Shown here: in pieces, positions 7,454 through 53,371 of the stretch
How positions within the stretch are numbered: the stretch's first letter is position 1
Layout of the letters: every line of letters begins with the position of its first letter
Origin: a virus
Strand: one strand, 5' to 3'
Virus record (IMG/VR): IMGVR_UViG_3300043411_002794
Coordinates: 32,001 to 96,000 of that record
Length of the DNA stretch: 64,000 nucleotides
The notes under the pieces: generated by a model
Told to the model about the DNA's origin: nothing
The model's database searches: none
The model's input: only the letters and a program-made list of their open reading frames with translations
Program-made: the position numbers and the translations under genes

Positions 7454-10400
7454 GCGGCCATTGCCTCTTCATAGGTCTTGGGCGGATTCAACATCCACCG
7501 CGGAAGATTGCGCTCGGCAACTTCCTCTTCACTGATGTGCTCACCCCAGTGGATGAACATTTCTTTGTCGATGCCGAAGTAGTACGGCCCCGCATTCAGC
7601 GGCGTGCCGTCCAGGTCCCGTGGTTGGAACGGAACCGACGTCATGCAGCGGGCCATCGTGTCGTAATAAACACGGGCCGCATGCTCAACGGGCACCAACA
7701 GAATGATCGCATCGTGGATCTGCAGCATCAGATGGTAGTAGAACTCGCGGGGATCGAACTGTTTGCGGTAATCAACGAAGTTGAACAACATCTCGTTGAC
7801 CGCTTCGGCCACGCCGTTTTGAATCCCGAAGTTCTGGAACTGCCGCTGCTGCTCGCCGATCACTTGGCGGTCATTTGTGGACTGCAATCTTCGATAGCTA
7901 AGATACGCTCCGCTCATCCAGTGCTGGTTTACGGCCCGTTCACGACAGCGGGCCAGATAAGCATCAACGCCGGAATAGTCATGCAGGTAGCTATCGATCA
8001 TCGCCTGGCACTGATCAACGGTGACGTTCACGCCTTCTTCGGCACACTGCCGGGCGATGGCTTCCGCCGACCGCCCGTACGGGATACCGAAGTTCACGTT
8101 TTTGGCCGCCACATAAAGGCCCTTGTTGCCGGAGTCGCTAAGACCCTTCTTCGTCGGAGCGCACGACAACTGAAACGTGGAACAGGCCCGGCGGGCATGC
8201 ATACCGAAGTAGTCCGGATCGTCCTCTTCCAGATCATTACGCCGGACGTGTTCGATCATCAGCGTATCCTGGGCCTGCCAGGCCAATACGGCCAACTCGG
8301 CGCCCTTGATATCTGCTTCAATCCCGACGTAGCCCGGCGGCACGGTCAACACGGAGCGGATGGGATGGTGATACAACCGTTCGACGCGGAAGATGTCCTT
8401 GTAGGCGCCGTTCAGAATGCGGTTGTAATCGTCCTCGCGTCGCTTCGAGATGTTCTGCAAATTCGGCCTGCGACTGGCAAACCGACAGGTTTCGAGCGTC
8501 TGCAATAAGTGCGTCCGCACCCGGCCGTCGGTACACATGGAGCCGAGCAGGCCGGCGTCATACTCGAAGTTGCCGTCTTCGTCCCGGTTGAACTCTCCGG
8601 TCGATTCATCCTGCGTCGGTTTCCGCAGCACGGTCTTAACGACCTGCGTAAGAAACTTGAGGTCACGAAGCTGCCGCGCAAGCGGATTACGGTGGCCCAG
8701 GATGCCAAGCACTTCTTTGTCGACGGACGGGGCGAAGTTGCCGTCTTCGCGGCGATTGATCAAATCGACCCACAGCTTCTTCCGCTTGCCGGTACTCGTG
8801 ATCGGCTGCAGTCCCAGCGACACAGGTTCCGGATGACCCGGTTCCGGCGTCGGTCGGATCCGCACGAACTGCCCGGTCTGCTTGTCGCGCTTACGGGCAT
8901 ATTCGTCACCGAACAACATGGCGACGCATTGCGGATGGCTCTGATGATTGAAGTTCGGCCAGTTGAGTTTGGTGCGCAAGTCGGCCAGCAACACTTCGCT
9001 GGCCTGCAAGAACACCGAGGTCAGCTCGTCCGCCCGATCCTTATCGATCTGGAAGCCGCACCGTTCCATCTCCAACACCGCCGCAGAGGCTTTGTGATGG
9101 CGATGATACGCGGCCCAGCAGTTGTTACCGAACCGATCGGCGTCCAACAACCCGCCCGGCTTCGTGTGCTGCACGTGGATCCGCAGCGTCACGTCTACGT
9201 CGTAGCAGCCGTAGTGCGGGTTCGTGTCGCCCCGTCGCAACTTGTCAGGGCACAACACTTCCGCCGGACATTCGCCGTACCCTTCCAGGTCCTCGAACTT
9301 GAGATGGTTCACGCTGCAGAAGCGTTTCTTCCATTCGCTCAAAGCCGTGTCGTAGCGAGGACACGTCGTGAGCTTCATGGCCACTTCTTCCAGCTTGAGC
9401 CGTGCCGTCTCGTTAATCGAGTGATGCTCTAACGACGTATCCCAACCGCCCGCACGCGGGTCCGCAGGATCCGGGAAGTATTCGTCCCGTACGTCGAGCC
9501 CCTCGTTGACGAGCCACGGCATATCCGCCCGAAGGAAGTGCCCGCCAATCTTCACCCGACGCCCCGGCGTGCTCTTGCAAAGCCGCCGCATATGGAACAT
9601 CAGGCGTTCGATCGACGGAGAACAGGCCACGGCGCCGCCAGGATGCCGAAGCACCAAGCAGCGGGCCCACTTCTCCTTGTAGGTGAACTGGATCGTACGC
9701 ACGTAAGATCCGGGCTCGCCCGGCTGCTCTCCGTGCCACTCAGCGTCCAGCGCGATCGTGCTGTTCTGCTCCACCGGCAACGCCAAGATCTCGTCCACAA
9801 CGCGAGACAACTCCCGCTCGGTGTAGATGTTGCCGTGATCGACATCCTTCTCCTCGGCTCCGACCTCGCCTCCGTTGATCATGTGCCAGAACAGCCGCAG
9901 CTGCTCCATGAACGGATCTTCAAGCTCAGGTGTCCGGTGCACGGCAGCAGGATGCAGGGCCGCCATGACGCGGATCTTATGCATCTGCGGCTGCTCACCT
10001 TCCCGAGCTTGCAGCGGAACCTCAATATCGATCACCCGGCCGTGCATGTTCGTGACACCGAACGACGACCCGAGCACCGCCTTAGAGGCTTCGGAGCCGA
10101 GACAGAGCAGGTACTTCGGCCGCACGAGCCGCAGCTCTTCGTGGAGCAGCGGCAGGCAATTCTTGATCCACGTCGTCGGCATGCTGCCGAGATTCGGATC
10201 AAGGGCCCCGTGCTTCACGAGGTTGGTGACGTACCAGCTATTGGCGACGTCGGTCGGAATGCCGAGCTCGTACACCGCTTTGTGCAGCTCATCGCTTGCC
10301 GGGCCGATGAAGTTGCATCTGCGCGACAACTCATCCTGCCCGGGCTGCTTGCCGAGAATCATGACGTCCGACTGCATCGGGCCGCCGCCGAAGTTGTCTG

Positions 10401-29959: not shown

Positions 29960-31987
29960 TTACGCAGCCTGCATTTCGTGTTTCGGAATGTTGGCCTCGA
30001 CCAGAACCTGCGACATCACAGGACAAACCGAATTGCCGATCTTGGCAACCTGATTCGCGGTCGAGCCCGTCAGTTTGTACCCAGCCGCCAACTCCGGCGT
30101 GAACTGGGCGTTCAGCAGCTCTCGCGGCCGGAGCATCCGCATGCCGACGTCGCTGATCAGATACATCTGACCGTCAACCGTCAGAAGCGGCAGCTTGGCC
30201 TTCTTGCCCAGATGCTTCTTGAGAAAGCGATGCACGCGGCGGAAGCCGTCAAACGTCGCCTTGTCGACCTGTTGCTGCAGCTCCTTGTAGACCTGCTTAT
30301 GGTCAGTGAGATCGATCGCGGTCAGATCGGCGTTGACGAGCCCGTTGTGATCGACGGCCGTAACCGTCGAGAGAGGGTCCTCCGGATGCGATCCGACGAC
30401 GCCGCCATAGAACTTGGTAATATGGGCAGCGGAGACGCCCATCGCATGTGCGGCCCCTGCGGGCCTCGCAGCACCTTCGCCGGACGTGATGACGGGCAGC
30501 GGTGTCTCCGCGTCGGTGCCGACGCTGTCGCCCCGCATCTTGGTCACGTGGGCGGCGATCAGCCCAGTGTGCGGGATCTGCGTCTGGGCCGGGGCTGGTG
30601 CGTCCGCCGGCTGACCGATGCTCTGCCCGTTGAACTGAGTGAGGCCTGCCGCGATCTCAGTAATCACCGGCGTAACGACGGCCTGCCGGTTGTCCGTCTT
30701 GACGACGTTCAGCGGTTTATCGACCGGACGCGGCTTAGCGGCGTAGCCGCTGCCGCCAGTACCGACGATAAGCGGTACCGCCGTCGGCTGTACCACGGCT
30801 GTGCCGCGGTGCTGCGTCAACGTATGCAGCGGCCGCGTGACCGGCCCGCCGCGCATATGGTCGGAGCCGTGCTGCGGCTTCACCAAGTAGGCGGGTGTCA
30901 CGGCAAACCGATCCCGCGTCGGGATCGTGTGCAACGGTTCGTCGGCGGCCTGCAACTGCCCGCCCTCGCCGTAGAACTTGTTGATGACCGGAGCAACGAT
31001 CGCCTTGTCGTTGTTGCTGTGTACGACCGAAAGGGGCTGGTCGCACGGCTGCCCGCGAAAGGATCCGCCTTCACCGGACTTCTCACTAAAATGCCCGATC
31101 CGCACGATGAACGGCTTATTTGCCTCGATCACGTAACGGAGCAGCCCGTTGGCCATCCGCCACATGGTCTTGGGTGCCAGCGGTCGCTTGCACTCAATCC
31201 CGGTACGCTTGCGGAGCAACGCTGCTTGCCGCTTCGTGAGAAAGATGCTGGGGCACGGGATGTCCCAGTAGATGCACTCGGCAGCCGTCCGCCAGGGGTG
31301 CATGCCGTGCGGCGCGAGTCCGCTCTTGTCGGGTTTGCCGTGCGTCTGTTTCGGCCAGACGATCGGCTTCCCGTCCCGCCGAGCAATCACGAACAACCGC
31401 TTCCGCGCCGTCGGTACGCCGTAATCGGCCGCGTTGAGCACGCGGGACTCGACCACGTAGCCGAGATCTTCCAAGGCCCGCACCCACCGACGATAAATCT
31501 CGCCTTTACGGGAGTGGATCGGAATCATCTGCGGCTTGCCGTCTTTCTTGACGAGGCGACCGTTCTTCTTCAACAACGTCAACGGGCCCCAGTCTTGGAA
31601 CTCCATGACGTTTTCGAGCATGATCACGTCGGGCAGCACATCCTTCGCCCACTTGACCACGACCCAGGCGAGCATGCGAATCCGCTTCTCGACCGGCTTG
31701 GAGCCCTTGGCCCGCGAATGGTGCTTACAGTCAGGGCTAGCCCAGAACAGTTTCACCTTGCGGCCGAAGGTCGCATCACGGGGATCGACGTGCCAGACGT
31801 CCTCCGTGTAATGCCAAGTCTCCGGATGGTTCATGGCATGCATCTCGATCGCCGCGTAGTCGTGGTTGATCGCGATATGCGGGCTCATGCCCAGGGCCAG
31901 AGTAATCCCCAACGAAGCCCCGCCGCCGCCGGCAAAACTGTCGACGACGATCGGAGCGTTGTGGTTCAGCGTCAGTGTCGGGTTCAT
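29960..31987 (-). CDS. C5-cytosine DNA methyltransferase (Dcm-like, long variable region)
   Basis: FAGGGG (motif I), SPDC (IV), ENV (VI), RKRLF (VIII), IGNSVCP (X); probable start MNPTL. Confidence 0.93.
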   Translation of the reverse strand: MNPTLTLNHNAPIVVDSFAGGGGASLGITLALGMSPHIAINHDYAAIEMHAMNHPETWHYTEDVWHVDPRDATFGRKVKLFWASPDCKHHSRAKGSKPVEKRIRMLAWVVVKWAKDVLPDVIMLENVMEFQDWGPLTLLKKNGRLVKKDGKPQMIPIHSRKGEIYRRWVRALEDLGYVVESRVLNAADYGVPTARKRLFVIARRDGKPIVWPKQTHGKPDKSGLAPHGMHPWRTAAECIYWDIPCPSIFLTKRQAALLRKRTGIECKRPLAPKTMWRMANGLLRYVIEANKPFIVRIGHFSEKSGEGGSFRGQPCDQPLSVVHSNNDKAIVAPVINKFYGEGGQLQAADEPLHTIPTRDRFAVTPAYLVKPQHGSDHMRGGPVTRPLHTLTQHRGTAVVQPTAVPLIVGTGGSGYAAKPRPVDKPLNVVKTDNRQAVVTPVITEIAAGLTQFNGQSIGQPADAPAPAQTQIPHTGLIAAHVTKMRGDSVGTDAETPLPVITSGEGAARPAGAAHAMGVSAAHITKFYGGVVGSHPEDPLSTVTAVDHNGLVNADLTAIDLTDHKQVYKELQQQVDKATFDGFRRVHRFLKKHLGKKAKLPLLTVDGQMYLISDVGMRMLRPRELLNAQFTPELAAGYKLTGSTANQVAKIGNSVCPVMSQVLVEANIPKHEMQAA

Positions 31988-32138
31988 GCACCAAATTCCA
32001 GTAATGTGTGAACAGGTACTCGCTTGAACCGTACGCGACACCGCGAACAGATCGGGCGAACAGCGCTCCGCACTAACTCTAAAAAGCGACGCGGCCGCAG
32101 ACGCACGTCACGGCCGCAACATTTGCACGCCAGTGTAC

Positions 32139-32781: not shown

Positions 32782-33726
32782 TCATACGACGTGCGAACGG
32801 CTGTTACCGTGTGCCCACGGTGGTGCTGGTAACAGCGGCTTATCGGCGCCGTCTTCGATGAGTCGTTTGGTAAAGATTCCTTTAAGTCGAGCATACGCCG
32901 GAGCCCGGTCACGATCGCCGAGTTTGCGACCCACCAACCAGTCGACGTAAGTGCTGCTGGCGGACAAGCTCATCAAGCACTTAGTGAATTGACTGTCCGT
33001 GATCTTCTGCGTCTTCGCCGAGTACTTGGTAAGCACGATACGGCGGTACAGCCACGCGCAAAGCGTCAGGTTAAGCGACGCCCACAAACGAAAATACTCC
33101 TGGTCGTTGCCCCAGGCCTTGAAACAACACTGCAAGAATCGCACGATCTGCTCGCCGTCTTCCTGCGTCATCTGTTTCGCAAGCGCAGCGCCACTGATAT
33201 TACGTGCACCCGGCACCAACGGCGCCGACGTCGACCAGCTGCGCACCAGCGCAGACATCGACAACAACGAGGAGGTACCCTCGCGGCGAATCTGCCCGTA
33301 GCCGACAAACGGGCAATGTTTCCGAATCGTCTGTAGTACCGGAGAACACGGCTCAAGCCCGCGCATGATGTCGTCGGGCTTCATGGAAACTAAGTGCGAG
33401 TTCAGTGCCACGAACTCTTCGGCCAACTCGGCCATCGAGCTACAGTAGCACGTACGCGCATCGACGTAGCCTTCCGACAATTCACTCAGCAGGAAGGCGT
33501 GGCGGCGTTGTCGCCCGTCAATCAGGTAGCGAGTACCGTCGACGACGCCGAACGTAATGATTCCCGGCAAAACGCCGCCGTCGGTCTGCAGCCGTTCAAC
33601 CAAAGCGAGAACAGCTGCGTTGACGGTATCTTCTCGCTGAAAATCCGGCAGCCGCCAGTCTTGCGCTTGTTTACGCGTAAAGTGCAGTGTATCGACAGAT
33701 GTCTTCGTAACACGGTTCTTACTCAT
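32782..33726 (-). CDS. ParB/Srx-like (DUF262/DndB-type) N-terminal domain protein
   Basis: LPDFQR and YLIDGRQRRHA motifs. Confidence 0.6.
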   Translation of the reverse strand: MSKNRVTKTSVDTLHFTRKQAQDWRLPDFQREDTVNAAVLALVERLQTDGGVLPGIITFGVVDGTRYLIDGRQRRHAFLLSELSEGYVDARTCYCSSMAELAEEFVALNSHLVSMKPDDIMRGLEPCSPVLQTIRKHCPFVGYGQIRREGTSSLLSMSALVRSWSTSAPLVPGARNISGAALAKQMTQEDGEQIVRFLQCCFKAWGNDQEYFRLWASLNLTLCAWLYRRIVLTKYSAKTQKITDSQFTKCLMSLSASSTYVDWLVGRKLGDRDRAPAYARLKGIFTKRLIEDGADKPLLPAPPWAHGNSRSHVV

Positions 33727-35198
33727 TAGCGGTCAAAACTCCGTACCCGCTGCCGAATGTCGAGCAGCGTGTTGTTATAGGTAATCACGCCGTCTTCAAA
33801 GACGGTGTTCAAGTAGCTGGCGTCGAAGGCATCCCGCATCGTCACCTTGTCGCAGGTGATGAAGTTGCCGCCGGCGTCGCGGTAGAGTCGCATGAAGCCC
33901 TTGAGCGATTTCTTATTGGGATCCGTGATCGGATCCTTTTCAATCTCGCGGACTTCGTCGTTGACGCGGACAACGGTCGCCTTGATGGCGTAACCGCTCG
34001 TGTCCCGGGTATGGTTGCGGAGGATCCCGCCGACGCCGATCACGAGGTTCTCGGGCGAGTAGCCCATCTCGCGAAGGTTGGCCAGCACGCGTTCGTAGCG
34101 GGCCAAGAACATGCCGTCGCCGTAGATCAGGCGTACGTGCGGATCGAGGACCTTGTAACCCTGCTTGTTGACCGTATGGCCGAAGGTCTTGTCGAGCAGT
34201 TGGATGCAGCCCAGTCGCTCCGGGCTATCGATTTCTGCGGCCGGGTCGCCACAGATGATCAGCTCTGGATCGCCCGAGTCCGGCCGGAAGACGACCTGCC
34301 CGTCACGGGCCATGATCTGATCTTTGAGCCGCGGCGCGAAGTCCGTCAGCACGTTGTAGATGCTGTACGTGTCGCTGACGATCGAGACGTGGCCGGACGG
34401 GTATTCTTCGAGCATGTGCACGAAAGCGTCGAACTCGGCCGTACGGCCGTAGCTGCACATGACCGAGTGCTCGCTGGCCGGGACCGACATCATGACCGGC
34501 TCCACCGCGTCCACGGCGTCGTAAAACGCGTCGGCGTACGGGGCGGCCGGAACCGTGTCCGAGCCGAAGAAATTGGTCAAGTGCGCAACGCCGGAGATCC
34601 CGGCACTCTCTTCCGTATCGGCGCCGCGGTAGCCGAAGTCGTGGACCGAGAAGCCCATCCACGGCCGCACTTCTTCGTCGACGCATTCCCGCCAGTTCTT
34701 GAGGACGACTTGGCGGTAGGTGTTGCTGCAGGTGGCCACGGTGTTCGTGTACCAGATCTTGAGCAGCAACGACTCGAAGAAGCCGACGACCCAGTAGAAC
34801 TCCGGCAGCGTGTTGGAGATCGTCATCAACACGTTACGGGCCGGAAGGATCGTCCCTTCCGGCACAGCCATGATCTTGAGCGGGATCCGGCCGTGGTTAA
34901 TGAGCCTCGCAATCTTGTCTTTAATCTTGTCCGGGCACGGCTGCCGCAGGATCTGCTCGTAGTACTTGAAGAACTCGACGGCCATCCACGGCTCGAGCTT
35001 CATCGTCAGGTACCGGCGGAGGTAGTACTGCAGCCCGAAGAAAACCGTCCGCGGAAAGGTCTTGGTGCTCCGAGCCATCAAGTGCGAGTACACGAAATCG
35101 CAGCCCGGGGCGTACTGAGACATATGCCCCAGTTTGTAGACGTCCGTGAGTAGCAGCGGGTTCGTGCGAAGCGTGACGTGCTGAGGGATACCGTTCAA
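33726..35198 (-). CDS. Nicotinamide phosphoribosyltransferase-like protein (Nampt/Namat)
   Basis: TDVYKLGH, HDFGYRG, SVPASEHS, SIVSDTY, RPDSGDP, IYGDG. Confidence 0.93.
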   Translation of the reverse strand: MNGIPQHVTLRTNPLLLTDVYKLGHMSQYAPGCDFVYSHLMARSTKTFPRTVFFGLQYYLRRYLTMKLEPWMAVEFFKYYEQILRQPCPDKIKDKIARLINHGRIPLKIMAVPEGTILPARNVLMTISNTLPEFYWVVGFFESLLLKIWYTNTVATCSNTYRQVVLKNWRECVDEEVRPWMGFSVHDFGYRGADTEESAGISGVAHLTNFFGSDTVPAAPYADAFYDAVDAVEPVMMSVPASEHSVMCSYGRTAEFDAFVHMLEEYPSGHVSIVSDTYSIYNVLTDFAPRLKDQIMARDGQVVFRPDSGDPELIICGDPAAEIDSPERLGCIQLLDKTFGHTVNKQGYKVLDPHVRLIYGDGMFLARYERVLANLREMGYSPENLVIGVGGILRNHTRDTSGYAIKATVVRVNDEVREIEKDPITDPNKKSLKGFMRLYRDAGGNFITCDKVTMRDAFDASYLNTVFEDGVITYNNTLLDIRQRVRSFDR

Positions 35199-35207
35199 GC
35201 GAAGCTC

Positions 35208-36080
35208 CTAGAAAACGTCGAAAGGAAGACGATACACATGCGGCGGCGAAGTGTGTTCCTCCCGCCAGAAAGAGTTTGTTGTAGCAATCGTGGCGTAGTG
35301 GGCTTTCAGCGAATCGAGCCCCTTGGAAAAGATCCCGTGCGAAACAAATAAATGCTTCGCTACGGCACCGCCAGCGGTAAGTGCGCGCGCCAGCAGCTCG
35401 AACGTCGCGCCGCCGTCACAAATATCATCGACCACCAGACAACGACAGCCGCGAACATTGCCGCTAAGTTCGTAACTGGTGATGTATCCGGTGTTGAGAT
35501 CGCGCACCTTGTTGCCGATGACGACGCGATGCGACAGATTCAGTTTCGCCATCTTTTTAGCGGCACCGGCATCCGGCGCCACGATCACGAGCTCGGTTTC
35601 ACCGGATCCGAGTAACGTCGCCTGTTGCTTCACGTGCGATTCGTTCGTGATGATCAGCGACTTGATTTCAAGTGCGTCCGTCATCGCTGCGACCACGTCC
35701 GAGTGCGGGTCGAAGAAGGCGACTTTTTCAAACTCAGCCAGCTTCAATTGTTTCAAAAACACTTTAAGGCTGAACGATTCGCCGGGCACCATCACGCGAT
35801 CTTGTCGTGCATACGGCACGTACGGAATGAACCCGTACACGCGCCAATCGCGACGACGGCACGCATCGGCCAGCAGTAACATCCGCTGAATATCACCGCT
35901 GCTGCGAAGCCGTGCGACAATAGTTACAGGCGTGTCTCTCGGCCAGCCTTCAAATCTACGCAACTTGACGTGCTCTTCGCCGCCGTGGAACGTAAACGCC
36001 TCGAATCGCGGGGAGGCGTCACGACGGGTTTCGTTGTCGCCGAGGGCGGGCGTCGGACAATCCAGATCCAAAAAGATCAT
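35208..36080 (-). CDS. Ribose-phosphate pyrophosphokinase-like protein (Prs/Adps)
   Basis: F..GE.HVK, PYVPYARQDR, DPHS, APDAGA, VVDDICDGGATF; start could extend to 36116. Confidence 0.9.
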   Translation of the reverse strand: MIFLDLDCPTPALGDNETRRDASPRFEAFTFHGGEEHVKLRRFEGWPRDTPVTIVARLRSSGDIQRMLLLADACRRRDWRVYGFIPYVPYARQDRVMVPGESFSLKVFLKQLKLAEFEKVAFFDPHSDVVAAMTDALEIKSLIITNESHVKQQATLLGSGETELVIVAPDAGAAKKMAKLNLSHRVVIGNKVRDLNTGYITSYELSGNVRGCRCLVVDDICDGGATFELLARALTAGGAVAKHLFVSHGIFSKGLDSLKAHYATIATTNSFWREEHTSPPHVYRLPFDVF

Positions 36081-36715
36081 CGATAATGCCTTGCAGGAGA
36101 TACGATATAAGGACAAATTTCACGCGGCTCGATCCAGCTTTCGTCTAACACGGCGTTCGGATTTCCCGCCGCCTGTATTTGTTTCAATTCAGCCTGTGCC
36201 GCTTTTCTACGTGCAGCGATCTGCTCGTAGCGATGATTAAGGTCGCGCGCCATTTCGTCGGCACGATTCGCCAGCGACTCATGAAAGTCCGCGGCCGAGT
36301 CAATACCATGCAGCAGCCGTTCGCGGACAACTTGCGGTACGCCTAGCGACAAAATGTTTTCACGAAGCAGTGTAGTCTGATCCTTAAACCAGACGCGGCC
36401 GCCGACGGACAACGGATCATCGAAGATTCGCTCGGGAACAATGTGTCCCGGCAAAACCATCCCGTCCCAGCCGCAATTACGAATGTAGTGCAGCGTCTCG
36501 GTGCGCGTTTCTTGCAGGATGAACTGGAACACGGCAATACGGGCCTCGTAAGCCGTTGGCGCCGAAGTGTGATACGCGGACATATCGCCGGAACCGGCGT
36601 CGTACAAAGCGCAGACAACGGTAAACGGCTTGAGCGGAGTATTGCCGTAACGAGGAAACAGCGGATCGGGGTCGCCGTCCGTTTGAAGATCAATCGAGCG
36701 TCTTGCCGTGCTCAT
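36077..36715 (-). CDS. Hypothetical protein
   Basis: Probable start MSTARRS, coupled to upstream stop. Confidence 0.5.
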   Translation of the reverse strand: MSTARRSIDLQTDGDPDPLFPRYGNTPLKPFTVVCALYDAGSGDMSAYHTSAPTAYEARIAVFQFILQETRTETLHYIRNCGWDGMVLPGHIVPERIFDDPLSVGGRVWFKDQTTLLRENILSLGVPQVVRERLLHGIDSAADFHESLANRADEMARDLNHRYEQIAARRKAAQAELKQIQAAGNPNAVLDESWIEPREICPYIVSPARHYR

Positions 36716-38049: not shown

Positions 38050-38466
38050 TCATCCCTCCGTCAGAAAGTACTCCCATTCAGCTTCCGAGTCGACTACGTC
38101 GTCCCAGCCGGCCGGATAGGTGCGGCGATTGCGGGCCGTCAAAGCCCGATGTTTCGCCGCGGTCATGGCTCGTAAGTTCTTATAACGATTGTTTCTTCGG
38201 TCGCCGTCCCGGTGGTGGATATCGTAGCCATCCGGGACCAGTTTGCGACGCACGGACATCCAGACGATGCGGTGAACCGCCACCGCCCGCCGCGCGCCGT
38301 CGAGGTAAATACGCACAAACAGGTACCGATCGGTTGAATCGGGCCGCTGGATCATCAACCTGCCGTCTTTGAAGATCTCGAGTTTCTTCAAATCAACGGT
38401 GATCCGCCCGGCCCGAATGGCCTGCAGTACACGTGCGTACGTGAGCGACTTATATTTTCTCGGCAT
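38050..38466 (-). CDS. HNH endonuclease (HNH_3-like)
   Basis: AVHRIVW...DIHHRDGDRRNNRYKNL. Confidence 0.85.
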   Translation of the reverse strand: MPRKYKSLTYARVLQAIRAGRITVDLKKLEIFKDGRLMIQRPDSTDRYLFVRIYLDGARRAVAVHRIVWMSVRRKLVPDGYDIHHRDGDRRNNRYKNLRAMTAAKHRALTARNRRTYPAGWDDVVDSEAEWEYFLTEG

Positions 38467-38516
38467 TGCCGGCTCCGAGGTCGGAGCCACTATACCCGCA
38501 AGCCGGTCGGCGTCGA

Positions 38517-38906: not shown

Positions 38907-39044
38907 AACTTTAGCCTATAATACTTCGTATTCATACGGTTCGCTGGTAAGCCAAAGTCGGGCCAAAACTTTAGCCTATAATACTTCGTATTCATAGGGT
39001 TCACTGGTTCCACCAACTTTAGCCTATAATAACTACGTTATTCA
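38907..39044. repeat. Three AT-rich direct repeats (about 30-bp core AACTTTAGCCTATAATACTTCGTATTCAT)
   Basis: Copies start at 38907, 38967 and 39015; copies 1 and 2 share about 42 bp, copy 3 is a variant with ATAACTACGTTATT. Confidence 0.92.
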
Positions 39045-39094: not shown

Positions 39095-39117
39095 AGGCGA
39101 TAGGAAGAGTAAATACC

Positions 39118-39567
39118 CTAAGTACCATGATCACAGGCTGCGATGGCATCCCGCACGACCGTGAGCTTGTCGATGATGCGCTGCAACCTAGCAACAGCGG
39201 CCGCAGGTGCTGCTCGCGATTCTTCATCCAACTCGGCTGCGATGAACGTCAGCCGATCATCACCAGCGGCCTTGGCGCGCTTCCAAAGTTGATGCAGCGT
39301 GCTAATCCCGCGATAGGGCGCGCGGGCTTCTTCCGCGGGATGGTAGGCCTGCAGCACGACCAGCATGTCATCGGCCGGCCAGCAGAGTTTGTTGCGGGTA
39401 CGCCGCGACAGGATCTTGGCGCGTTCGTAGGTGGTAGCGTCGATGGTGCCCATGTTCTCGCACCCTTCGGTCTCGTAGGCGTCCACGACGTCTGCGAGCA
39501 TGGCTGCAAGTTCTTCGTAGGTGGGTTTGTCGGCTTCGGGTCTTGCGACCTGTTCAGCTTCGGTCAT
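39118..39567 (-). CDS. Hypothetical protein
   Basis: 149-aa ORF directly after junction motif copy 4. Confidence 0.6.
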   Translation of the reverse strand: MTEAEQVARPEADKPTYEELAAMLADVVDAYETEGCENMGTIDATTYERAKILSRRTRNKLCWPADDMLVVLQAYHPAEEARAPYRGISTLHQLWKRAKAAGDDRLTFIAAELDEESRAAPAAAVARLQRIIDKLTVVRDAIAACDHGT

Positions 39568-41123: not shown

Positions 41124-42326
41124 CTAGGTCGCGATGCAGCTGCATTCACAACCGGCACAAACGGATTTCATTTGTAGGTTGAGCTTCGGTAGCGGTTCAC
41201 CCATGTCTTCGGGCGTGAACTGCTCGATGAAGTCGTGCCATTCGGGGATTTCAAGCCCGCCGGCAAACGCCTGCTGATTGTCGATGATCTCCTGCGGCGC
41301 CGTCGCCGTCAGGAGATCGATCTCTTCGGCCGGGAGAAGTTTGTGCTCCCGAATGAACTGGGTCATCATGCCCGGCATCTTCTTGCCGCCGCGATTGCCC
41401 TTGCGGCCGCGACGCCAGAGGCCCAGTACGCCGGTGGCGTTGCGTCCCCGACGCGGCTGCTTGGGAAGTTCCTTTTGGGCCCGCTTGCCGCCGTCGCGCT
41501 TCGGACGGGCGTTCTCCGCGTCGATCTCTTGGCAACGGAGCCGCCACGCGGCGAGCTTCGTCTCATATTGGCGATCGAGCTCGTCTTGCGGGATGTGGCC
41601 TTCGAGCCGCGGGAGCGCCCGGGCCTCCATGATCACGATGTACCGCAGGTAGATCTTCTTGAAGTGCTGCAGCTCTTCCGGCTGCGTAGCCGGGCAGAAG
41701 ATGCATGCCGACTTCACAGGCTGCCCGCCGCTTTCGACCCAGGTCTTACCGGTCCAGTCGGACCAGCCCGGGAGGTTTTCTTTGCGGATCTCGGCGATGC
41801 ATCGCTCTCGATCCCAGCCCCATTCGATGAGCGGGTACCAGTAGTTGTACTTGGGGTCAGTGTCCTGGCCCTTGATCGCTTCGTTATAGCGACGCTGATC
41901 TTTGGGTCCGGCGTCGTAGCCGATGACCTTCGTGACGCGCTGCCCGGCGGCCCAGGCCGCTTGAGCCGTCGCCCATTGCTCGCAGAAGGCATTCTGCGGG
42001 GCGACCTTCCATTTGAGCGAACAGCTTTTGAAACCAAACGCCAGACTCGGCAGCGTGCCGTTGGTGAGGCAGTTCTCGCCGAGGGAGTGATATTTTGGCC
42101 AGTGCATGAAATCTTGCACGACATTTTTAACGACGGTTACAGGTGGAAAACCAACCGATTGCAGCCATCGTTGTGCTACCGGAAGGTAGTCGTATGTTTC
42201 TTGTCGCTCGTTGCCGGTGTCGGCAAATAAAATGAGATCCGGCCGAATGTTCTGGCGGCGAAGTCCGATGATTGCAGCCCAACTGTCAACACCGAGGCCG
42301 TAGGATACAACAAGGGGCTTATGCAC
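41124..42326 (-). CDS. PAPS-reductase-like adenine-nucleotide alpha-hydrolase family protein
   Basis: PP-loop VSYGLGVDS, FADTG.E, CSLKWK, YPLIEWGWDRERC, SACIFCP. Confidence 0.8.
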   Translation of the reverse strand: MHKPLVVSYGLGVDSWAAIIGLRRQNIRPDLILFADTGNERQETYDYLPVAQRWLQSVGFPPVTVVKNVVQDFMHWPKYHSLGENCLTNGTLPSLAFGFKSCSLKWKVAPQNAFCEQWATAQAAWAAGQRVTKVIGYDAGPKDQRRYNEAIKGQDTDPKYNYWYPLIEWGWDRERCIAEIRKENLPGWSDWTGKTWVESGGQPVKSACIFCPATQPEELQHFKKIYLRYIVIMEARALPRLEGHIPQDELDRQYETKLAAWRLRCQEIDAENARPKRDGGKRAQKELPKQPRRGRNATGVLGLWRRGRKGNRGGKKMPGMMTQFIREHKLLPAEEIDLLTATAPQEIIDNQQAFAGGLEIPEWHDFIEQFTPEDMGEPLPKLNLQMKSVCAGCECSCIAT

Positions 42327-42806: not shown

Positions 42807-43310
42807 TCATCTGTTCACGATCTTGGCCAGGAGTTTCTTTTGTTTGTACCAAGCCATTTGTGCGCCTTGGCTTAGACCTTTGGTGGCCCAGTTGCAGTTC
42901 ATGCCGATGGCCGGAATGATCTGCGTTAAGTACTCAGCGTAGGGCTCGCCCATGTGGAGCTCGATAAGAATGTCTTTGAACGCGGCTCCTTCGTGTCCCG
43001 TCCCTTGTGCGTCTCCGTACTTGAGCTTCACCAGCAGGCTCTCGACAACACGAAGCGACCAAAGTGCCCGTTCTCCGGCCGGGGCGCCGACGAGCGTTTT
43101 GTCATACGTCGAGATGTACTGGTCCGGAGACAGCAGTCCGAGTTGTGCAGAGGCAATGTACCACTGATCGCCCGTCGCTTCCGCGTAAGTGCGGCGGGCG
43201 TTGAAGATGCTGCCGGTATAAAGCGAGCGAGCCGTTACGAGGTCGTTGGTTCGTTGCTTTGCCTTCCCGCAGCCGACGATAATTATTCGAGTCGGTGTTT
43301 GGTGTCCCAT
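42807..43310 (-). CDS. DUF6884-like (YaaA-fold) protein
   Basis: IIVGCGKAKQ...ARSLYTGSIF...WYIASAQLGLL; AGGAG RBS. Confidence 0.62.
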   Translation of the reverse strand: MGHQTPTRIIIVGCGKAKQRTNDLVTARSLYTGSIFNARRTYAEATGDQWYIASAQLGLLSPDQYISTYDKTLVGAPAGERALWSLRVVESLLVKLKYGDAQGTGHEGAAFKDILIELHMGEPYAEYLTQIIPAIGMNCNWATKGLSQGAQMAWYKQKKLLAKIVNR

Positions 43311-43323
43311 ATTCTCCTAGTTC

Positions 43324-44550
43324 GTCAGCATTGTCGTAGTCGCAGCCACAGTCGTAACGCAGTCGTTGTCGTCAGCACGGTCGTTGCCGTTGCCAATGCC
43401 GTTGTCATAGTCGAGGTCAGTGTCCGCAGCGTTGCCGCAGTCGTTGTCACAGTCATGAACGAAGCGCCGTCATCGTCATCAGCGTCGTCGTTGTCGACGT
43501 CGTGGTCGGAGCAGATGCCTAAGTCAACGCCGTCAGCAGTGCCGCAGTCGGTGACGAAGTCGCTGCCGGTGTCGTTGCGCTGTCGTGGCCGGAAGCGTCG
43601 TCGATGTCGTTGTCGTTGCGCCGTCAGTGTCGTTGTCGCAAGCGGAGACGTAGTCGTTGTCGCAGCCGTCGTCATTGCCGCTACCGAAGTCGCCAGCGCT
43701 GTCGCTGCCGTAGCCGCTGCCATTGCCGACACGTCGGGGTTGTCGATGTCGCGGGCTGCAGCGTGGTCGTTGCCGGAGTCGATGTCAGAGACGGTGTCGA
43801 TGCCAGTGTCGTGGTCAGATGCAATGTCGCGGACGCAGTCGGAGTCATGGTCGATGCGGCGTCTCAGTCGAAGCCTGCAGCGTAGTCACTGTCGTTGTCG
43901 AGGTCAGGACATTGTCGTTGCCGTTGCCGTGGGCAGAAGCATCGTCAACGTCGAGGTCGTCGTCACTGCGTGGTCGGCAGCGTCGTCGTTGCCGGAGCCA
44001 GTGTCAAAGCCGGAGTCGGTGTCGTCGTCTTTACGCTGTCGTGGGATCAGCAAGGACGGAGTCGGAGCCGGTGACGTAGCCAGAGACGATGTCGCTAGCG
44101 CAGTCGTAGTCAATGCCGATGCATGGACATAGCCAACAGCGTCGTCAAAGTCGCTGCACGGTCTCCGTCGAAGTCATCGTCGAAATCGTTGCCAGTAGCA
44201 TTGTCGTTGCCGCTGCCGTTGTCGGGACGTAGCCGGGGCGTCAGCGCAGTCAATGCCGTTGTCGTCGTCAATGTCACTGCCGGAATCGCCGTCGTTGCCT
44301 CTAGCGTTGCCGCAGTCGTTGCCGCAGCCGGCACGCTGTCTATACCGGAGTCGCAGCCGATAGCGTTGCCGCTGTCGGCGTCATTGCCACAGCCGTCGTC
44401 ATGGTCGTTAGCAGAGTCGTGGTCGCTTGCGTAGTCAGCGTCGTAGGCAGAGCCGTCGCCGATGTCGTTATCGAAGTCAAAGTCACTAGCGTCGTCAGTG
44501 TCGTCGTCGAAGTCGTAGTCACGATCGTTGCCGCTAGCAGTGTCGCTGCC
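43324..44550 (-). ncRNA. Hexamer-periodic array, candidate guide-RNA locus of the adjacent RAMP gene
   Basis: Manual parse of the minus strand gives 192 hexamers (G-N-Y-N-N-Y, mostly GAC/GGC-NNY) plus 15 pentamers = 1227 nt exactly; the register shifts reading frame repeatedly; no RBS/ATG at its start. The periodic repeat is certain; the RNA function is inferred. Confidence 0.65.
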
Positions 44551-44564
44551 GTCGACGGTTCGGG

Positions 44565-45236
44565 TTAAACTTCGGTGCCTTCTTCGACCACGTCGCACGA
44601 AACGACGCGGCCGCGGCCGTACCCCATTTTACGGCACGCGCCGACGCCGACGAAGTAGCAGGCGTAGTCGATCAGGTGCTTCACCGAGTTTTCGTCGTAG
44701 ATCGTCCGCATGATCCCGACGGCGTCGAAGTTGCGGAGCAGTTCGTTGGACTGGAAGCGGCGCTGCCCGCCTTCTTCCGGCTTGACGTACCGCTCGTAGA
44801 TGTCGTCTTTCTCGAACTTGCCCGTTTTGAAGTCGCCCAGCCGCAATTTGCTGCGGAGGTCGTCTTTCGGGAAGCGGCTGCCCGCCGGAGCCGACGTGGT
44901 GGCCTGCACCAGGGCACCCGAGAACTGGTGACGGGGAATGATGATCTCCGTCTTCATGTTGTTCGGGTCGATGCGGTACCACTTGCGCTCCGCGGCCTTG
45001 CAGAGGCGTTCGTATTCGTCTTGCGTAATCCCTTCCTTTTTGAGGTAGGACTGCAGGGCCTGGGCGCGTTTGTCGTCGGAGCGGGCCCGGTTCATGCCGG
45101 ACTTCTTCTGGATGTCGATGACCGAATTGCGTTCCGGCCAATACGGGTCGGCGATGTAGTCGTCGAAGTGGACGACCACCTTGAGAGTCTTGATTTGATC
45201 GAAATCGTTCGGGATCGTGCCTTTGGACTTAGTCAT
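44565..45236 (-). CDS. Stand-alone Cas7/RAMP-superfamily protein (223 aa)
   Basis: IIIPRHQFSGALVQA matches the Cas7/Csm3 IPxxxxxGxl segment; C-terminal G-rich loop VGVGACRKMGYGRGRV; start coupled to upstream ORF (ATGACTAA). Confidence 0.82.
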   Translation of the reverse strand: MTKSKGTIPNDFDQIKTLKVVVHFDDYIADPYWPERNSVIDIQKKSGMNRARSDDKRAQALQSYLKKEGITQDEYERLCKAAERKWYRIDPNNMKTEIIIPRHQFSGALVQATTSAPAGSRFPKDDLRSKLRLGDFKTGKFEKDDIYERYVKPEEGGQRRFQSNELLRNFDAVGIMRTIYDENSVKHLIDYACYFVGVGACRKMGYGRGRVVSCDVVEEGTEV

Positions 45237-45453
45237 GTTGCTTCGTGAAAACCTGTGTGAATATTTTGGGATCTTGAAAACTCGGATGAGCCTCGACCAG
45301 CTTGTGGATGCAGATCGTGCTGTGGAGTCGCCGGGCGGTCTTCGGATCGCAATCCGGATCCGCCAACATGGCTTCAAAGGCCCGGGCCATGTCGGCGTGA
45401 TAGCCGCCGTAGGTGCCGGGTCGGTAGTGTCGTCGCCAGAGAATTTCAAGCAC
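45229..45453 (-). CDS. Small hypothetical protein coupled to the RAMP gene
   Basis: 74-aa ORF whose stop overlaps the RAMP start. Confidence 0.5.
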   Translation of the reverse strand: MLEILWRRHYRPGTYGGYHADMARAFEAMLADPDCDPKTARRLHSTICIHKLVEAHPSFQDPKIFTQVFTKQHD

Positions 45454-49056: not shown

Positions 49057-49380
49057 TCAGCTCGTCGGGCACGGCGTGTCTCCGGGCGGATTCGTCGGAC
49101 AGGGGTACTGCGTGATATTCTTCTCACGCACGGCGGCGACGACCTTCTGGAATTTTTCCGGGTCGGCCATGATGAGGATGCCCAGCGGATTGTCGAAGCA
49201 GATCGCTAGGGCGATTGCTTCGGCAGGATCTGCGCATTCCAGTGGTGCGCCGAGGAGGCAACTGCCCCGCTCCTGATTGAACACGCCGGTTTTGCCGTTG
49301 GGCAGCAATTCCGTGTACGTGTCAATCGGAGCGGGTCGCGGCGTCTTTGCGGATCTGTCGAGGATTGTGGAAAAGTCCAT
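49057..49380 (-). CDS. Hypothetical protein
   Basis: TAATG coupling to the thyX stop. Confidence 0.45.
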   Translation of the reverse strand: MDFSTILDRSAKTPRPAPIDTYTELLPNGKTGVFNQERGSCLLGAPLECADPAEAIALAICFDNPLGILIMADPEKFQKVVAAVREKNITQYPCPTNPPGDTPCPTS

Positions 49381-50486
49381 TACGCGGCTTTGTACACGAG
49401 GCCGAGCTTCTGCAGCTTGGCCAAGCACTCGTCGCGTTCACGGGAGCGGGCGCCGCCCCATTCCGGCGGGCAGGCCTGCAGGAACATCGCTTCGGTTACG
49501 CCACCGTGTCCGTCGACGAGCGGTACGAGATTCTGGATCACCGCGATGTCGAGTTCGGTCAGCGTCATCGCGTTGAGGCGGTACTGCTTGAACGCTTCCC
49601 ACAGCACGGGGTAGAGCTGCCCGACGATCGCACCGATCGCGTTGGCGTAGGTGCGGATCTCCAGCTGCGCGTGAGAGTCCATCCGCAGCGAGAGGAAGTG
49701 CAGCAGGTTGTGCATGTCGCACTTCCAGATCGCCGTCGTCATAGTCGACAGCGGCAGATCTTTGCGGGCCTGCTCTTTGGCGACGCCGAACGCCAGGCGT
49801 TCTTCGTAGATTCCGCGGGATTCGTCGAGACCTTCCGTCTCGCGATGCGTCAGATACCGGCCCGGCGTAATGTCCGAGTAGTAACCGACGTATTCGAACA
49901 CCAGGGCTGACTGCGCAAATTCAAACGTGTCCGCCGCTTCGGTGTTGTTGAAACGGAACACACCCCAGCGACGTTCGTCCGCCCGGTCTTCTTCGGTGAC
50001 AAGTACGCCGGGCTGTCCGTCTTCGTCGATCGGAAAGATGCGATAATTGGCGGGCCAGTTATCGCCCAGTTCGCCTGCGCTGCCCTGCCGGTTCGACGTG
50101 CTTTGCAGCCGCCACGAATCAACGCCGGTGCGCTGGCACTCATCGATCGCCGGGGAGTACCGCGTCGAGTATTCGTTGACGTTCGCCATGCGGTGGCGAA
50201 TCCATTGGCGCCAGGTATCCATCGCGACCGTCACGCGAAACTTCATCTCCACCATCTCGAACGGCGTCGTATGGCGGTGCCGCAGCAGGTACCGCATGAG
50301 GCCGACGTCTTCGGCCGGCAACTTGGCGGTCGTCTGTGCCGTCACGCGGGCGGCTTCACAGATCTCGCGTTCATGACCCATGACGTCGATCAACTGGATC
50401 GAGCCGTCGAGTACCGGGACGCATTCTTGTTTCAGTGCGGCAAGCTTCGCAGCAAACGCTTCCGAGGAAAGGAACTCAGCCGACAT
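49380..50486 (-). CDS. thyX: Flavin-dependent thymidylate synthase
   Basis: RHRHTTPFEM, RQWIRHRMANVNEYSTRY, EQARKDLP, LRMDSHAQLEIR. Confidence 0.95.
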   Translation of the reverse strand: MSAEFLSSEAFAAKLAALKQECVPVLDGSIQLIDVMGHEREICEAARVTAQTTAKLPAEDVGLMRYLLRHRHTTPFEMVEMKFRVTVAMDTWRQWIRHRMANVNEYSTRYSPAIDECQRTGVDSWRLQSTSNRQGSAGELGDNWPANYRIFPIDEDGQPGVLVTEEDRADERRWGVFRFNNTEAADTFEFAQSALVFEYVGYYSDITPGRYLTHRETEGLDESRGIYEERLAFGVAKEQARKDLPLSTMTTAIWKCDMHNLLHFLSLRMDSHAQLEIRTYANAIGAIVGQLYPVLWEAFKQYRLNAMTLTELDIAVIQNLVPLVDGHGGVTEAMFLQACPPEWGGARSRERDECLAKLQKLGLVYKAA

Positions 50487-51178: not shown

Positions 51179-53129
51179 GGCTGCCTCCATGTATGACCGG
51201 CCGGAGCAGGCGCTCCGCACCGGTAGTGTTGCTCGCCTTGGGGCTACTCCCAAGGCCGTGAATTCGCTCATCAAAGATCTGATCTCGCCCGAACGGCACG
51301 GCCGCCCGATCGATATCACGGACAGGACCCACGCCTTACGGCGAATGGTCGATAACGGGGCGGTGCTGAGTCCGGCTAAGTTCTTAGGCAGCATCCTGCG
51401 GCTCGACGGGAAGCCGTTCACGCTGGACGACTACCAGCCGATGTCGCCGCTGTATCGCGCCCTCATGCCGACCAATACCACGTTAGGTACGGGTCGCCAA
51501 GTCGGCAAATCGACGAACATTGCGGCCCGCGGTCTGTTGACCTCGCTCGGTATCCCCAATTTCAAAACGCTTTACGTCACGCCGCTCTACGAACAGATTC
51601 GGCGTTTTTCCAACAACTACGTACGGCCCTTCATCAATCAGTCTCCTCTGCGGAGTCAATGGGTCAGCACGGTGACTGAACAGTCGGTGCTGCAGCGAAG
51701 CTTCCGCAACGGCTCGCTGATGTTGTTCTCGTTCGCGCTACTCGACGCGGATCGTATCCGCGGTGTGTCGGCACACTGCGTGTGCATCGACGAAGTGCAA
51801 GACATGGATCCGGCGCACTTGCCGATCATCAACGAAACGCTGACGGCCAGTAAGCAATACGGCCTTTCGATTTTTACAGGTACACACAAGAGCCTCTCGT
51901 CCGCGCTGCAGGGGCTCTGGAGTGAATCAAGTCAAGCGGAATGGGTGATCCCGTGTCCGCATCCAGGTTGTAAGACCGAGAATGTTCCATCGCGAGAGTT
52001 TCACGCGGAAGCAATGATCGGTCCGGTGCACATGCACATCAGCGAACGCTACCCGGGCGTCGTCTGTCGCAAGTGCCGCCGTCCGATCTCGCCGCGCTTT
52101 GGTATGTGGCGGCATCGTTACAAAGAGCTGCGATGGGTGCGGGCCGGTTATCACATTCCGCAAATCATTCTTCCGCTTCACTACGCTAGTCAGGAAAAGT
52201 GGAGCCAGATCGTTCGTAAGAAGTCCGGCGCTATTAGTGAAGCGGCCTTCTGGAATGAAGTGATGGGCGAGGCCGTCGACGTCGGGCAAAAGCTCGTGTC
52301 CGAATCGGAACTCAAACAAGCCGCATCGCTGCCGTGGCAAAACAATCCCGATCGACCGAACGGGGAGATCAAGAAACGGCTGAACCAATACGCCCACAAA
52401 ACGCTGGCCATTGACTGGGGCGGCGGCGGTGAGAAGGGTACCAGCTTTACGGCGCTCGCCGTGCTCGGCCAAACTGCCGACGGTAAGATCGACGTGCTCT
52501 GGGGTAAGCGGCTCATGCTTGGTTGCGATCGTATTCGCGAGGCCAAGGAGATCCGCGAGTGGTACACGTTCTTCAAATGTGAGTACATCGCGCACGACTT
52601 TACCGGTGCCGGCGAAGTCGCTGAAGCGGTGTTGATTCAAGCCGGACTGCAGCCGAAGCGGATCTTCGGCATTCGCTTACAGCGGTCGGGATACCAGGAC
52701 ATCATGGTGTTCCACGAACCGACGAGCTTCAACCACCATACGTTCCACACGCTCGACAAAGCCCGCTCACTGAACTACACGTGTACGGCCATTCGATTAG
52801 GTCGCGTCCGTTTCTTCCAGTGGGATCGTTTGGCCAAAGATCAGATCGGCCTAATCGGTGACTTCCTTGCATTAACCGAAGCCAATACGGAGCTGCGGCT
52901 CGGCGGTACGCTTTACACGATCGTCCGGGATCCTATGTGGCCGGACGACTGGGCACAGGCCGTGAATCTTGGCACCTGTTTAATCTGGCAGTTGTCCGAT
53001 TCGTGGCCTAACTTCGCCAAGCTGGCCGGCATCAAGAAATTGAGCCAGGCGCAGCTCCACGCCGCCGGTGATTACCAGTGGGGCTGGGATACGGATCCGG
53101 GCCGAGCTCATTTTCTCGGGAAGCCGTGA
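51177..53129 (+). CDS. Terminase large subunit (GpA-like)
   Basis: GAGGAG RBS; TGRQVGKST Walker A, CIDEVQD Walker B, CPHPGC...CRKC Zn, AIDWGGG nuclease motif. Confidence 0.9.
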   Translation: MAASMYDRPEQALRTGSVARLGATPKAVNSLIKDLISPERHGRPIDITDRTHALRRMVDNGAVLSPAKFLGSILRLDGKPFTLDDYQPMSPLYRALMPTNTTLGTGRQVGKSTNIAARGLLTSLGIPNFKTLYVTPLYEQIRRFSNNYVRPFINQSPLRSQWVSTVTEQSVLQRSFRNGSLMLFSFALLDADRIRGVSAHCVCIDEVQDMDPAHLPIINETLTASKQYGLSIFTGTHKSLSSALQGLWSESSQAEWVIPCPHPGCKTENVPSREFHAEAMIGPVHMHISERYPGVVCRKCRRPISPRFGMWRHRYKELRWVRAGYHIPQIILPLHYASQEKWSQIVRKKSGAISEAAFWNEVMGEAVDVGQKLVSESELKQAASLPWQNNPDRPNGEIKKRLNQYAHKTLAIDWGGGGEKGTSFTALAVLGQTADGKIDVLWGKRLMLGCDRIREAKEIREWYTFFKCEYIAHDFTGAGEVAEAVLIQAGLQPKRIFGIRLQRSGYQDIMVFHEPTSFNHHTFHTLDKARSLNYTCTAIRLGRVRFFQWDRLAKDQIGLIGDFLALTEANTELRLGGTLYTIVRDPMWPDDWAQAVNLGTCLIWQLSDSWPNFAKLAGIKKLSQAQLHAAGDYQWGWDTDPGRAHFLGKP

Positions 53130-53371
53130 TGCAACGGATCAAGTAGGCGATCGTCTTCGAATGCTTGTTCGATCTCGTCGTCGAGGTCGAGGTCGACGTC
53201 CAGCAACCAGTCGTCGTCAATGCTGTCGTCGTTCGCCGCGAGCACGTTGTGCTCCGGCGGGAAGTACGGACTGTCGATGTTCTCGGACTTACCGCGGAGC
53301 TCTTCCAGCGGCTCGTCGACGTCGAGATCGAACGCTTCGGGAAATTCTTGGTCGTCGAGATCGTCTTGCAT
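53108..53371 (-). CDS. Small highly acidic protein
   Basis: 87 aa with 31 Asp/Glu; no clear RBS. Confidence 0.5.
   Translation of the reverse strand: MQDDLDDQEFPEAFDLDVDEPLEELRGKSENIDSPYFPPEHNVLAANDDSIDDDWLLDVDLDLDDEIEQAFEDDRLLDPLHHGFPRK

Follow-up and report, generated by a model that had tools for sequence, protein, structure and literature searches.

The window analyzed here is a 64,000-nucleotide (nt) stretch of viral DNA (positions 32,001 to 96,000 of IMG/VR record IMGVR_UViG_3300043411_002794). On its minus strand, it carries a gene for a 223-residue stand-alone RAMP protein with a predicted Cas7/Csm3-like fold (44565..45236; hereafter the vipr-like gene), followed by a non-coding tract of ~208 short units that forms a candidate multi-guide RNA array (43324..44556). 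The locus is likely, in our view, to represent a VIPR-type RNA-guided system of a phage, with a register of 6 nt instead of 5 nt. VIPR was first described in 2026 and was presented as a 5-nt code, in which three bases are sequestered and two are read. It consists of the RAMP protein Vipr and a vrRNA built from GGY/NN pentamers, with one protomer per repeat (bioRxiv 10.64898/2026.04.26.720920, 10.64898/2026.04.26.720927). Vipr sequesters GGY and presents NN, which pairs with DNA so that every third target base is skipped; most of these systems are viral, and their effect is to silence competing elements (720920, 720927). The original prediction, which was drawn from the letters of the window, had described VIPR as a RAMP protein paired with GGY-NN pentamer arrays whose NN dinucleotides spell a gapped DNA target, in agreement with these publications. 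What appears to be new at this locus, judging from its sequence, is the 6-nt unit, a step length unreported for VIPR, in an otherwise VIPR-related system.

An array of 6-nt units downstream of the vipr-like gene

The virus record to which the window belongs is a contig of 192,194 nt that is 93% complete and has a single copy of the vipr-like gene. The autocorrelation of the minus-strand tract next to this gene peaked at lags 6, 12, and 18 (0.48, 0.48, and 0.45), compared with off-period values of 0.14–0.20, which agrees with the period of 6 that had been predicted. Growing side peaks at lags 11, 17, and 23 indicated that occasional 5-nt units are interspersed in the array. Dynamic-programming parsing resolved the tract into 192 hexamers and 16 pentamers over 44556–43325, with a score of 769 versus 160 ± 15 for shuffled sequences, and a second such parse gave 193 hexamers and 15 pentamers over 44556–43324. 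The original prediction had counted 192 hexamers and 15 pentamers; its grammar and parse stand, except that it omitted the first unit, GTCGAC (193 + 15). The same unit affects the distance to the gene. The array begins 9 nt past the TAA stop codon of the 223-residue open reading frame (ORF) when GTCGAC is counted, and the predicted gap of 14 nt holds only without it (14–15 nt).

The hexamer unit is G-N-Y-N-N-Y, with G1 conserved in 99%, Y3 in 99%, and Y6 in 96% of the units. Among the 192 hexamers, position 1 was G in 189, position 3 a pyrimidine in 190, and position 6 a pyrimidine in 184, while position 2 was A in 106, G in 49, C in 27, and T in 10. All four bases occurred at positions 4 and 5, at ~1.9 bits each. 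The positional pattern claimed earlier from the first 36 units (G1, Y3, Y6, and free positions 4–5) therefore extends over the array. The pentamers read G-Y-N-N-Y, which is a hexamer minus position 2, the least constrained base of the scaffold. The 208 NN dinucleotides were no more repetitive in their order than after shuffling, and they were A/T-rich (~37% G+C by our own count) in a contig of ~60% G+C. At its 3′ end, the array abuts the GGAG-N7-ATG of the next gene (43310–42807) and thus ends just before the ribosome-binding site (RBS) of that gene, as had been predicted. It is the sole strong period-6 tract of the 192-kilobase (kb) contig and, with ~208 units, the longest array among the 34 loci examined. 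Secondary structure of the array RNA was not above that of shuffled sequences (z of −0.36 and +0.12), and the array had no family match in Rfam.

As candidate guide boundaries, the array offers its pentamers, 22 units that open with GCT, and a few that open with GCA or GCC. They would divide the array into modules of 1–10 units, several of which end in GAC-GAC before GCT, as in a related locus described below (L028).

The vipr-like protein and its relation to Vipr

The start codon of the vipr-like gene, ATG, overlaps the stop codon of an upstream 74-residue ORF, and the gene ends in TAA. Its product contains both motifs from which a RAMP protein had been predicted, the G-loop GVGACRKMGYGRG at residues G197–G209 and, for the IPxxxxxGAL segment, IIPRHQFSGAL. 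The AlphaFold2 model, obtained with a 65-sequence alignment as input, had a predicted local distance difference test score (pLDDT) of 93.5 and a predicted template-modeling score (pTM) of 0.86. When this model was compared with the PDB by Foldseek, Csm3, type VII Cas7, and Cas7-11 were retrieved (best E 2.3e-6; 109 matches at E ≤ 1e-3). The VIA aligner gave a Z of 12.9 to Csm3 (9g9a_G), with 140 residues aligned at a root-mean-square deviation of 3.4, and CRISPR RAMPs filled the first 38 rows of the VIA fold search. The best matches among viral models were three phage proteins of 194–252 residues that are uncharacterized or annotated as RAMP. The order of the secondary-structure elements in the model is β1, a three-helix insertion (residues 34–82), β, helix, a β-hairpin (131–151), a long strand, helix, the G-loop, and β. 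This order agrees with that of Vipr in the VIPR structural paper (RRM core, helical bundle, thumb, and G-loop), the helical bundle and the thumb of the vipr-like protein being assigned by position only. On the basis of the model, the Cas7/Csm3-type RAMP fold can be assigned confidently; the fold that had been proposed for the protein was thus recovered with AlphaFold2, Foldseek, and VIA, and hhalign connected its family to Vipr.

For the hhalign comparison, the canonical set comprised 40 aligned type II Vipr proteins, including that of the Escherichia phage SUSP1 (KT454805), the exemplar of VIPR type II (locus genes ALH47069.1, which is Vipr, and ALH47068.1; structure PDB 36pp). A scan like that applied to the window found the SUSP1 pentamer arrays at 27.6–28.0 and 29.2 kb. 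The 65-sequence family aligned with the 40 canonical Viprs with a probability of 96.8% and an E of 2.1e-10 over 152 columns, which span residues 59–216 of the vipr-like protein and 30–192 of SUSP1 Vipr. In this alignment, the IP..G.L segment of the family corresponds to the conserved IPG.NI.A.L of Vipr, and the G-loop GVGACRKMGYGRG to G.GDWRPR-FGRF, with the loop of the vipr-like protein one residue longer. By this profile evidence, the vipr-like family is a remote homolog of canonical Vipr, which represents the early-branching clade of RAMP proteins.

Pfam gave nothing above threshold for the 223-residue protein itself, and among the 65 homologs there were weak Pfam matches to RAMPs (PF03787) in 4 and to CRISPR_Cas6 in 8. 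A PDB sequence search with the single protein returned no match. With the family profile, the G-loop of Cmr6 (3x1l_H, E 0.07) came ahead of SUSP1 Vipr (36pp_D, E 0.6), both at weak scores. The 40 canonical Viprs matched neither the Pfam RAMP models nor the CRISPR chains. The wider family of the vipr-like protein comprises 264 clusters at 50% identity (E ≤ 1e-3), and its closest relatives, 74–88% identical, were found in Logan assemblies. None of the isolated phages in INPHARED encodes a homolog.

Period-6 arrays accompany the gene in related loci

Related loci were collected by degenerate-pattern searches with the family alignment. This yielded 25 loci from IMG/VR and 8 from metagenome-assembled genomes (MAGs) of Planctomycetota, Methylomirabilota, Actinomycetota, and Acidimicrobiia, with proteins 29–48% identical to the query across the 33 loci. 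One of them (L031, in genome G030, which is flagged as unpublished) enters only the 33-locus tally and the GCC statistics. A period-6 tract was located directly upstream and/or downstream of the gene in ~31 of the 33 loci, and a period-5 tract adjoined the gene in none of them. Two loci deviate: in L028, a distance of ~1.9 kb separates the array from a disrupted gene upstream of it, and in the AT-rich L001, strand and phase are ambiguous. In every clearly phased adjoining array, the G1..Y3..Y6 motif was on the strand of the gene. The fixed triplet depended on the clade, with GCC in most and GGC or GAC in others, as did position 6 (C or T), while positions 4–5 were near 2 bits everywhere. The 6-nt register is therefore a property of the family.

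The turnover of the free bases can be followed among close relatives. The proteins of phages G011, G012, and G014 are 89–95% identical, and their loci have a leader, the junction of the array with the RBS of the gene, and a 3′ tail of ~55 nt in common, but their NN strings are unrelated. The VIPR authors described the same turnover for vrRNA, with a fixed frame and a fast change of the two free bases. Together with the ~31 of 33 loci, these phages bear out the expectation that homologs adjoin tracts with a conserved scaffold and different NN. The downstream guides of G012 (337–552) and G014 (6248–6322; loci L075 and L078) end in the ~55-nt conserved tail, which starts with TTCGTTCCCTTCC; in G012, two array-plus-tail units stand in tandem. 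The tail resembles that of type II VIPR vrRNA, and its three copies are too few for covariation analysis.

Several arrays of the relatives are modular. In G006 and G005, a module consists of GCT-NN-T, followed by six to ten GGC-NN-T units and then GAC-TTA. In L028, from a Planctomycetia MAG, modules run from GCT-NN-T to GAC-GAC and mostly have 10 units. Clean junctions, at which GAC-TTA or GAC-GAC meets the next GCT, delimit modules of 7–12 units in these three arrays. In G008, whose array (locus L008) comprises 75 GGC-NN-C units, near-identical modules are repeated with few NN changes.

Three further observations concern the integrity and position of the arrays. In L028 (G028 contig 21), the vipr-like gene is split into a piece encoding residues 2–161 (85324–85791) and one encoding residues 150–210 (83418–83597); the second piece contains two TAG stop codons, and the distance of ~1.7 kb between the pieces suggests an insertion. 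A well-formed array of 135 units persists downstream of this split gene. Orphan clean hexamer arrays were observed in G015 (38234–38467, 39114–39220, and 7549–7703), G009 (53038–53151), and G010 (2132–2319), at distances of tens of kilobases from the vipr-like gene of the respective phage contig. In a Methylomirabilota MAG (L029, ~340–440), a period-5 tract of GG plus three variable bases (GGATC, GGAGG, GGAAG, and GGACC) precedes a hexamer-type vipr-like gene by 3.5 kb and could be either a pentamer VIPR-like array or a simple repeat.

Comparison with VIPR and with CRISPR Cas7

The locus resembles SUSP1 and other VIPR loci in being a minimal, phage-encoded unit with a small stand-alone RAMP protein that has a G-loop and, by position, a thumb and a helical bundle. 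In both systems, arrays of short units lie on the strand of the gene, upstream and/or downstream of it, with a fixed G/Y scaffold that alternates with two hypervariable bases, and a conserved 3′ tail follows the repeat tract in some relatives of the window. The unit, however, has 6 nt here (G-N-Y-N-N-Y; 193 of 208 units) and 5 nt in VIPR (GGY-NN), and the second scaffold base is C, G, or A, depending on the clade, rather than G. Besides the longer G-loop, residues D177, W178, and apparently R138 of SUSP1 Vipr are replaced (see below). A vap gene, which is typical although not universal in VIPR, is not conserved here. The array of the window is continuous over 1.2 kb and ~208 units, and it has no tail because it runs into the RBS of the next gene.

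Some features of the array also occur in non-canonical and staggered VIPR arrays. Arrays of the forms NNNGG, YNNNG, and NNNNG are reported (720920, methods and figs S17–S18), as are GAC/NN, CAC/NN, WGT/NN, and TGH/NN arrays (bioRxiv 10.64898/2026.10.21.760802); the fixed triplet can thus differ from GGY, as in GAC/NN, and arrays can be continuous without separate tails. In contrast to the array of the window, all reported units are pentanucleotides, and a figure legend in 720920 refers to a "pentanucleotide motif across types"; seven VIPR types have been published. In the published VIPR papers outside their supplementary tables, the October satellite paper included, we found only pentanucleotide units and no mention of hexamers. 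In a genome-wide survey of periodicity, bands are listed at 5, 18, and 60–79 nt, together with non-canonical 5-mers such as GAC/NN and a small number of clusters at 7, 8, and 10 nt; a 6-nt class is not named. The proposal of a related or new system with a 6-nt register is supported by these comparisons, since the register is family-wide and has no counterpart in the VIPR papers searched. Members of the family may nevertheless sit unremarked in the published set of 2,664 Vipr proteins, whose supplementary tables lie outside the comparison.

The Cas7 proteins of class 1 CRISPR systems (Csm3, Cmr4, Cmr6, and type VII Cas7) are the best structural matches of the vipr-like protein, and Cmr6 has a G-loop of equal length and similar sequence. 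Cas7 subunits bind guide RNA in a 6-nt step. Unlike class 1 CRISPR systems, the locus is phage-encoded, and the guide would be a run of 6-nt units with two free bases each rather than a contiguous spacer. As the original prediction had stated for the window, there is no CRISPR array and no cas1, nor are there other cas genes; the entire 192-kb record contains no Cas1, no CRISPR-like repeat, and no further RAMP gene.

Searches for targets

Self-targeting was examined with 8-unit windows of the array, reading positions (4,5), (4,5,6), or (3,4,5), at target periods 2–6 against the phage's own 192 kb. Real guides performed no better than guides with reversed unit order. For cross-targeting, 33 clean arrays with 1,638 units were compared, at target periods 2–6, with 1.14 Mb of sequence from phage contigs and MAG loci of relatives, and no enrichment over reversed or shuffled guides was observed in this sequence. 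First-pass matches of this search were rejected as the product of mis-phased arrays and coding repeats. A single 9-unit match at period 4, of a G003 guide on G009, fits chance.

Exact-pattern scans that follow the 1-nt-skip rule of VIPR were made on IMG/VR (five scans, with modules from the window, G006, G014, and G012), on JGI metagenomes (two scans), and on 401 Planctomycetota genomes with an L028 module. All gave zero or chance-level matches. Seven IMG/VR matches belonged to one homologous gene family on AT-rich phage contigs (L104–L110) and fell on the coding motif NLLKSRQGIVVNISCKPTCL. There, a G012 guide matches with nine of its units, in the reading frame of the motif and with each skipped base in a wobble position, but 0 of 10 further units match, and the similarity was judged to be due to chance. 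Three metagenome matches extend by at most one further guide unit. The search with NN units that the original prediction had suggested therefore returned only chance-level matches in phage, metagenome, and Planctomycetota sequence. These null results reflect a lack of power and are not evidence against targeting, because the host and other mobile elements are poorly sampled.

Proposed mechanism and alternative explanations

We propose that the vipr-like gene and the array are co-transcribed; both lie on one strand, within a long run of genes of that orientation. Copies of the RAMP protein would polymerize along the array RNA with one protomer per unit, each holding the constrained bases Y6-G1-N2-Y3 through its G-loop, thumb, and RRM surface. 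The free bases N4 and N5 would be exposed and would jointly spell a gapped recognition sequence on the target nucleic acid. Judging from VIPR, this target would most likely be DNA, either from a competing mobile element or from the host, and would be silenced on binding. GCT-initiated units and 5-nt units probably mark the borders between individual guides. When set against the characteristics of VIPR, the locus agrees in protein homology, RAMP fold, non-CRISPR context on a virus record with phage genes, and the adjacent same-strand array, and it differs in the unit length and the accessory gene. It is from the analogy with VIPR that we infer function, processing, and code, including the step of one protomer per six bases, the bases that pair, the type of target, and the skip rule.

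Several observations weigh against this proposal. None of the rules tried (target periods 2–6) led to a natural target, all searches being at chance level. No accessory vap gene is conserved, and the RAMP protein is the only protein common to the 33 loci and the window. The candidate guide boundaries in the array of the window are irregular, at 1–10 units apart, and far less regular than those of the relatives. No promoter or terminator consensus was found near the array. In SUSP1 Vipr, D177 reads G1, W178 stacks on G2, and R138 of the thumb contacts G2 (VIPR structural paper). In the hhalign register, the positions of D177 and W178 are occupied in the vipr-like family by Ala and Cys/Ser, and R138 is aligned to Asn in our register-dependent reading of the alignment. 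If this register holds, the scaffold would have to be recognized differently; these replacements would be in keeping with the loss of G as the second base of the scaffold.

The regularity of the tract also raises the question of whether it is or was a gene. ORFs of 162 and 135 residues on the minus strand and of 392 residues on the plus strand overlap it, and period 3 is visible in its autocorrelation as well. Such ORFs are expected from the unit itself, because a stop codon is impossible in two of the three frames of G-N-Y-N-N-Y and the complement is open in one frame. If the tract were a present or former gene for a low-complexity (Asp/Gly/Ala-X)n repeat protein that is now frameshifted, the RAMP gene would be its neighbor by coincidence. 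However, every single reading frame is broken by the 15 or 16 frame-shifting 5-nt units and by in-frame TGA, TAG, and TAA codons. In relatives, the fixed triplet was GCC in 25/25, 21/21, and 48/51 hexamers, with almost no synonymous variation, and the variable triplet nearly always ended in one and the same pyrimidine. Such a near-invariant triplet with a constant final pyrimidine indicates a constraint at the level of nucleotides and not of protein. Moreover, arrays are found on either side of the gene and reach directly into its RBS, and the linkage of RAMP gene and array recurs in ~31 of the 33 loci. The tract is non-coding, and a repeat-protein gene, which we rejected on these grounds, is hardly credible.

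The non-coding tract could also act as DNA, for example as a series of protein-binding sites or as a recombination or packaging element, which would fit with the absence of a promoter consensus near it. We regard this as very improbable, since the neighboring protein has the predicted fold of an RNA-binding RAMP and is a homolog of Vipr, a protein that binds periodic RNA with one unit per protomer. In addition, the orientation of the motif relative to the gene is fixed in every clearly phased adjoining array, and hypervariable dinucleotides in a fixed scaffold would make no sense in a simple array of binding sites. A closer alternative retains the RNA–protein filament of the VIPR lineage and dispenses with the gapped NN code for DNA; the filament would then act on an RNA target, read NNY, or serve as a regulatory or structural ribonucleoprotein. 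The missing target under the VIPR 1-nt-skip rule and at other periods agrees with such a filament, as do the G-loop and thumb residues that are unlike those of SUSP1 Vipr. Among solved structures, the RNA-targeting type III proteins Csm3 and Cmr4 come closest in fold, and pairing with RNA is also possible for VIPR filaments in vitro (VIPR structural paper). On the other hand, the homology to Vipr and the same grammar of fixed and variable bases favor the same kind of function, and the target searches were badly underpowered, with the host and competing elements unsampled. We therefore consider a filament of this type unlikely and prefer the RNA-guided system with a gapped code in a 6-nt register.

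Tentatively, the preferred reading could be taken one step further. The hexamer family might be a distinct VIPR type that combines a 6-base step, like that of Cas7, with two exposed bases, and would thus be intermediate between the 5-nt VIPR filaments and the 6-nt Cas7 backbones and possess a programmable gapped code of its own. Such an intermediate position fits with the G-loop, which is Cmr6-like in length and style of sequence, and with the Pfam RAMP models, against which only this one of the two Vipr families tested still scores. It also fits with the mixture of 6-nt and 5-nt units in the array of the window.

The hexamer loci represent a sizeable sister family, with 264 clusters in phages and in MAGs of Planctomycetota, Actinomycetota, Methylomirabilota, and others. 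The 6-nt unit in a sister family of Vipr implies that the register of such filaments is not fixed, and it makes the family a natural experiment in which to ask how the guide step is set by RAMP protomers. The unit is also relevant to the proposal that the 6-nt Cas7 backbones are descended from Vipr-like proteins, and a second programmable gapped code could be gained from it. In a hexamer array, two frames remain open, and gene calling easily turns such a tract into an ORF. Arrays of this kind are therefore likely to be annotated as ORFs, and surveys of intergenic sequence will probably miss them.

Genomic neighborhood

The 74-residue ORF upstream of the vipr-like gene (45229..45453, minus strand) overlaps the start of this gene with its stop codon by 8 nt, and from this arrangement the two are probably co-transcribed. 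The ORF had no match in PADLOC or NCBIfam and no homolog in any of the 33 related loci. Directly past the array, the minus strand encodes a DUF6884 protein (42807–43310; Pfam E 7e-29; PADLOC PDC-M57A E 3.5e-20 and DpdC E 6.6e-9). The DUF6884 gene is unlinked to the RAMP gene in the other loci and is not a conserved partner. The next gene past it encodes a PAPS-reductase-like protein (phrog_424; 41124–42326, minus strand). By their annotations, these two genes may together constitute a 7-deazaguanine-type module for DNA modification and not a partner of the RAMP protein.

Farther away, genes for NAMPT and ribose-phosphate pyrophosphokinase (PRPP synthetase) are adjacent on the minus strand (33726–36116) and constitute a phage NAD-salvage pair. 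The window also encodes ThyX (49380–50486) and a C5 DNA methyltransferase of 693 residues (29960–32041). A direct repeat of ~30 nt that contains TATAAT is present at 38907–38936 and 38967–38996, with a spacing of 60 nt, and may be a duplicated phage promoter.

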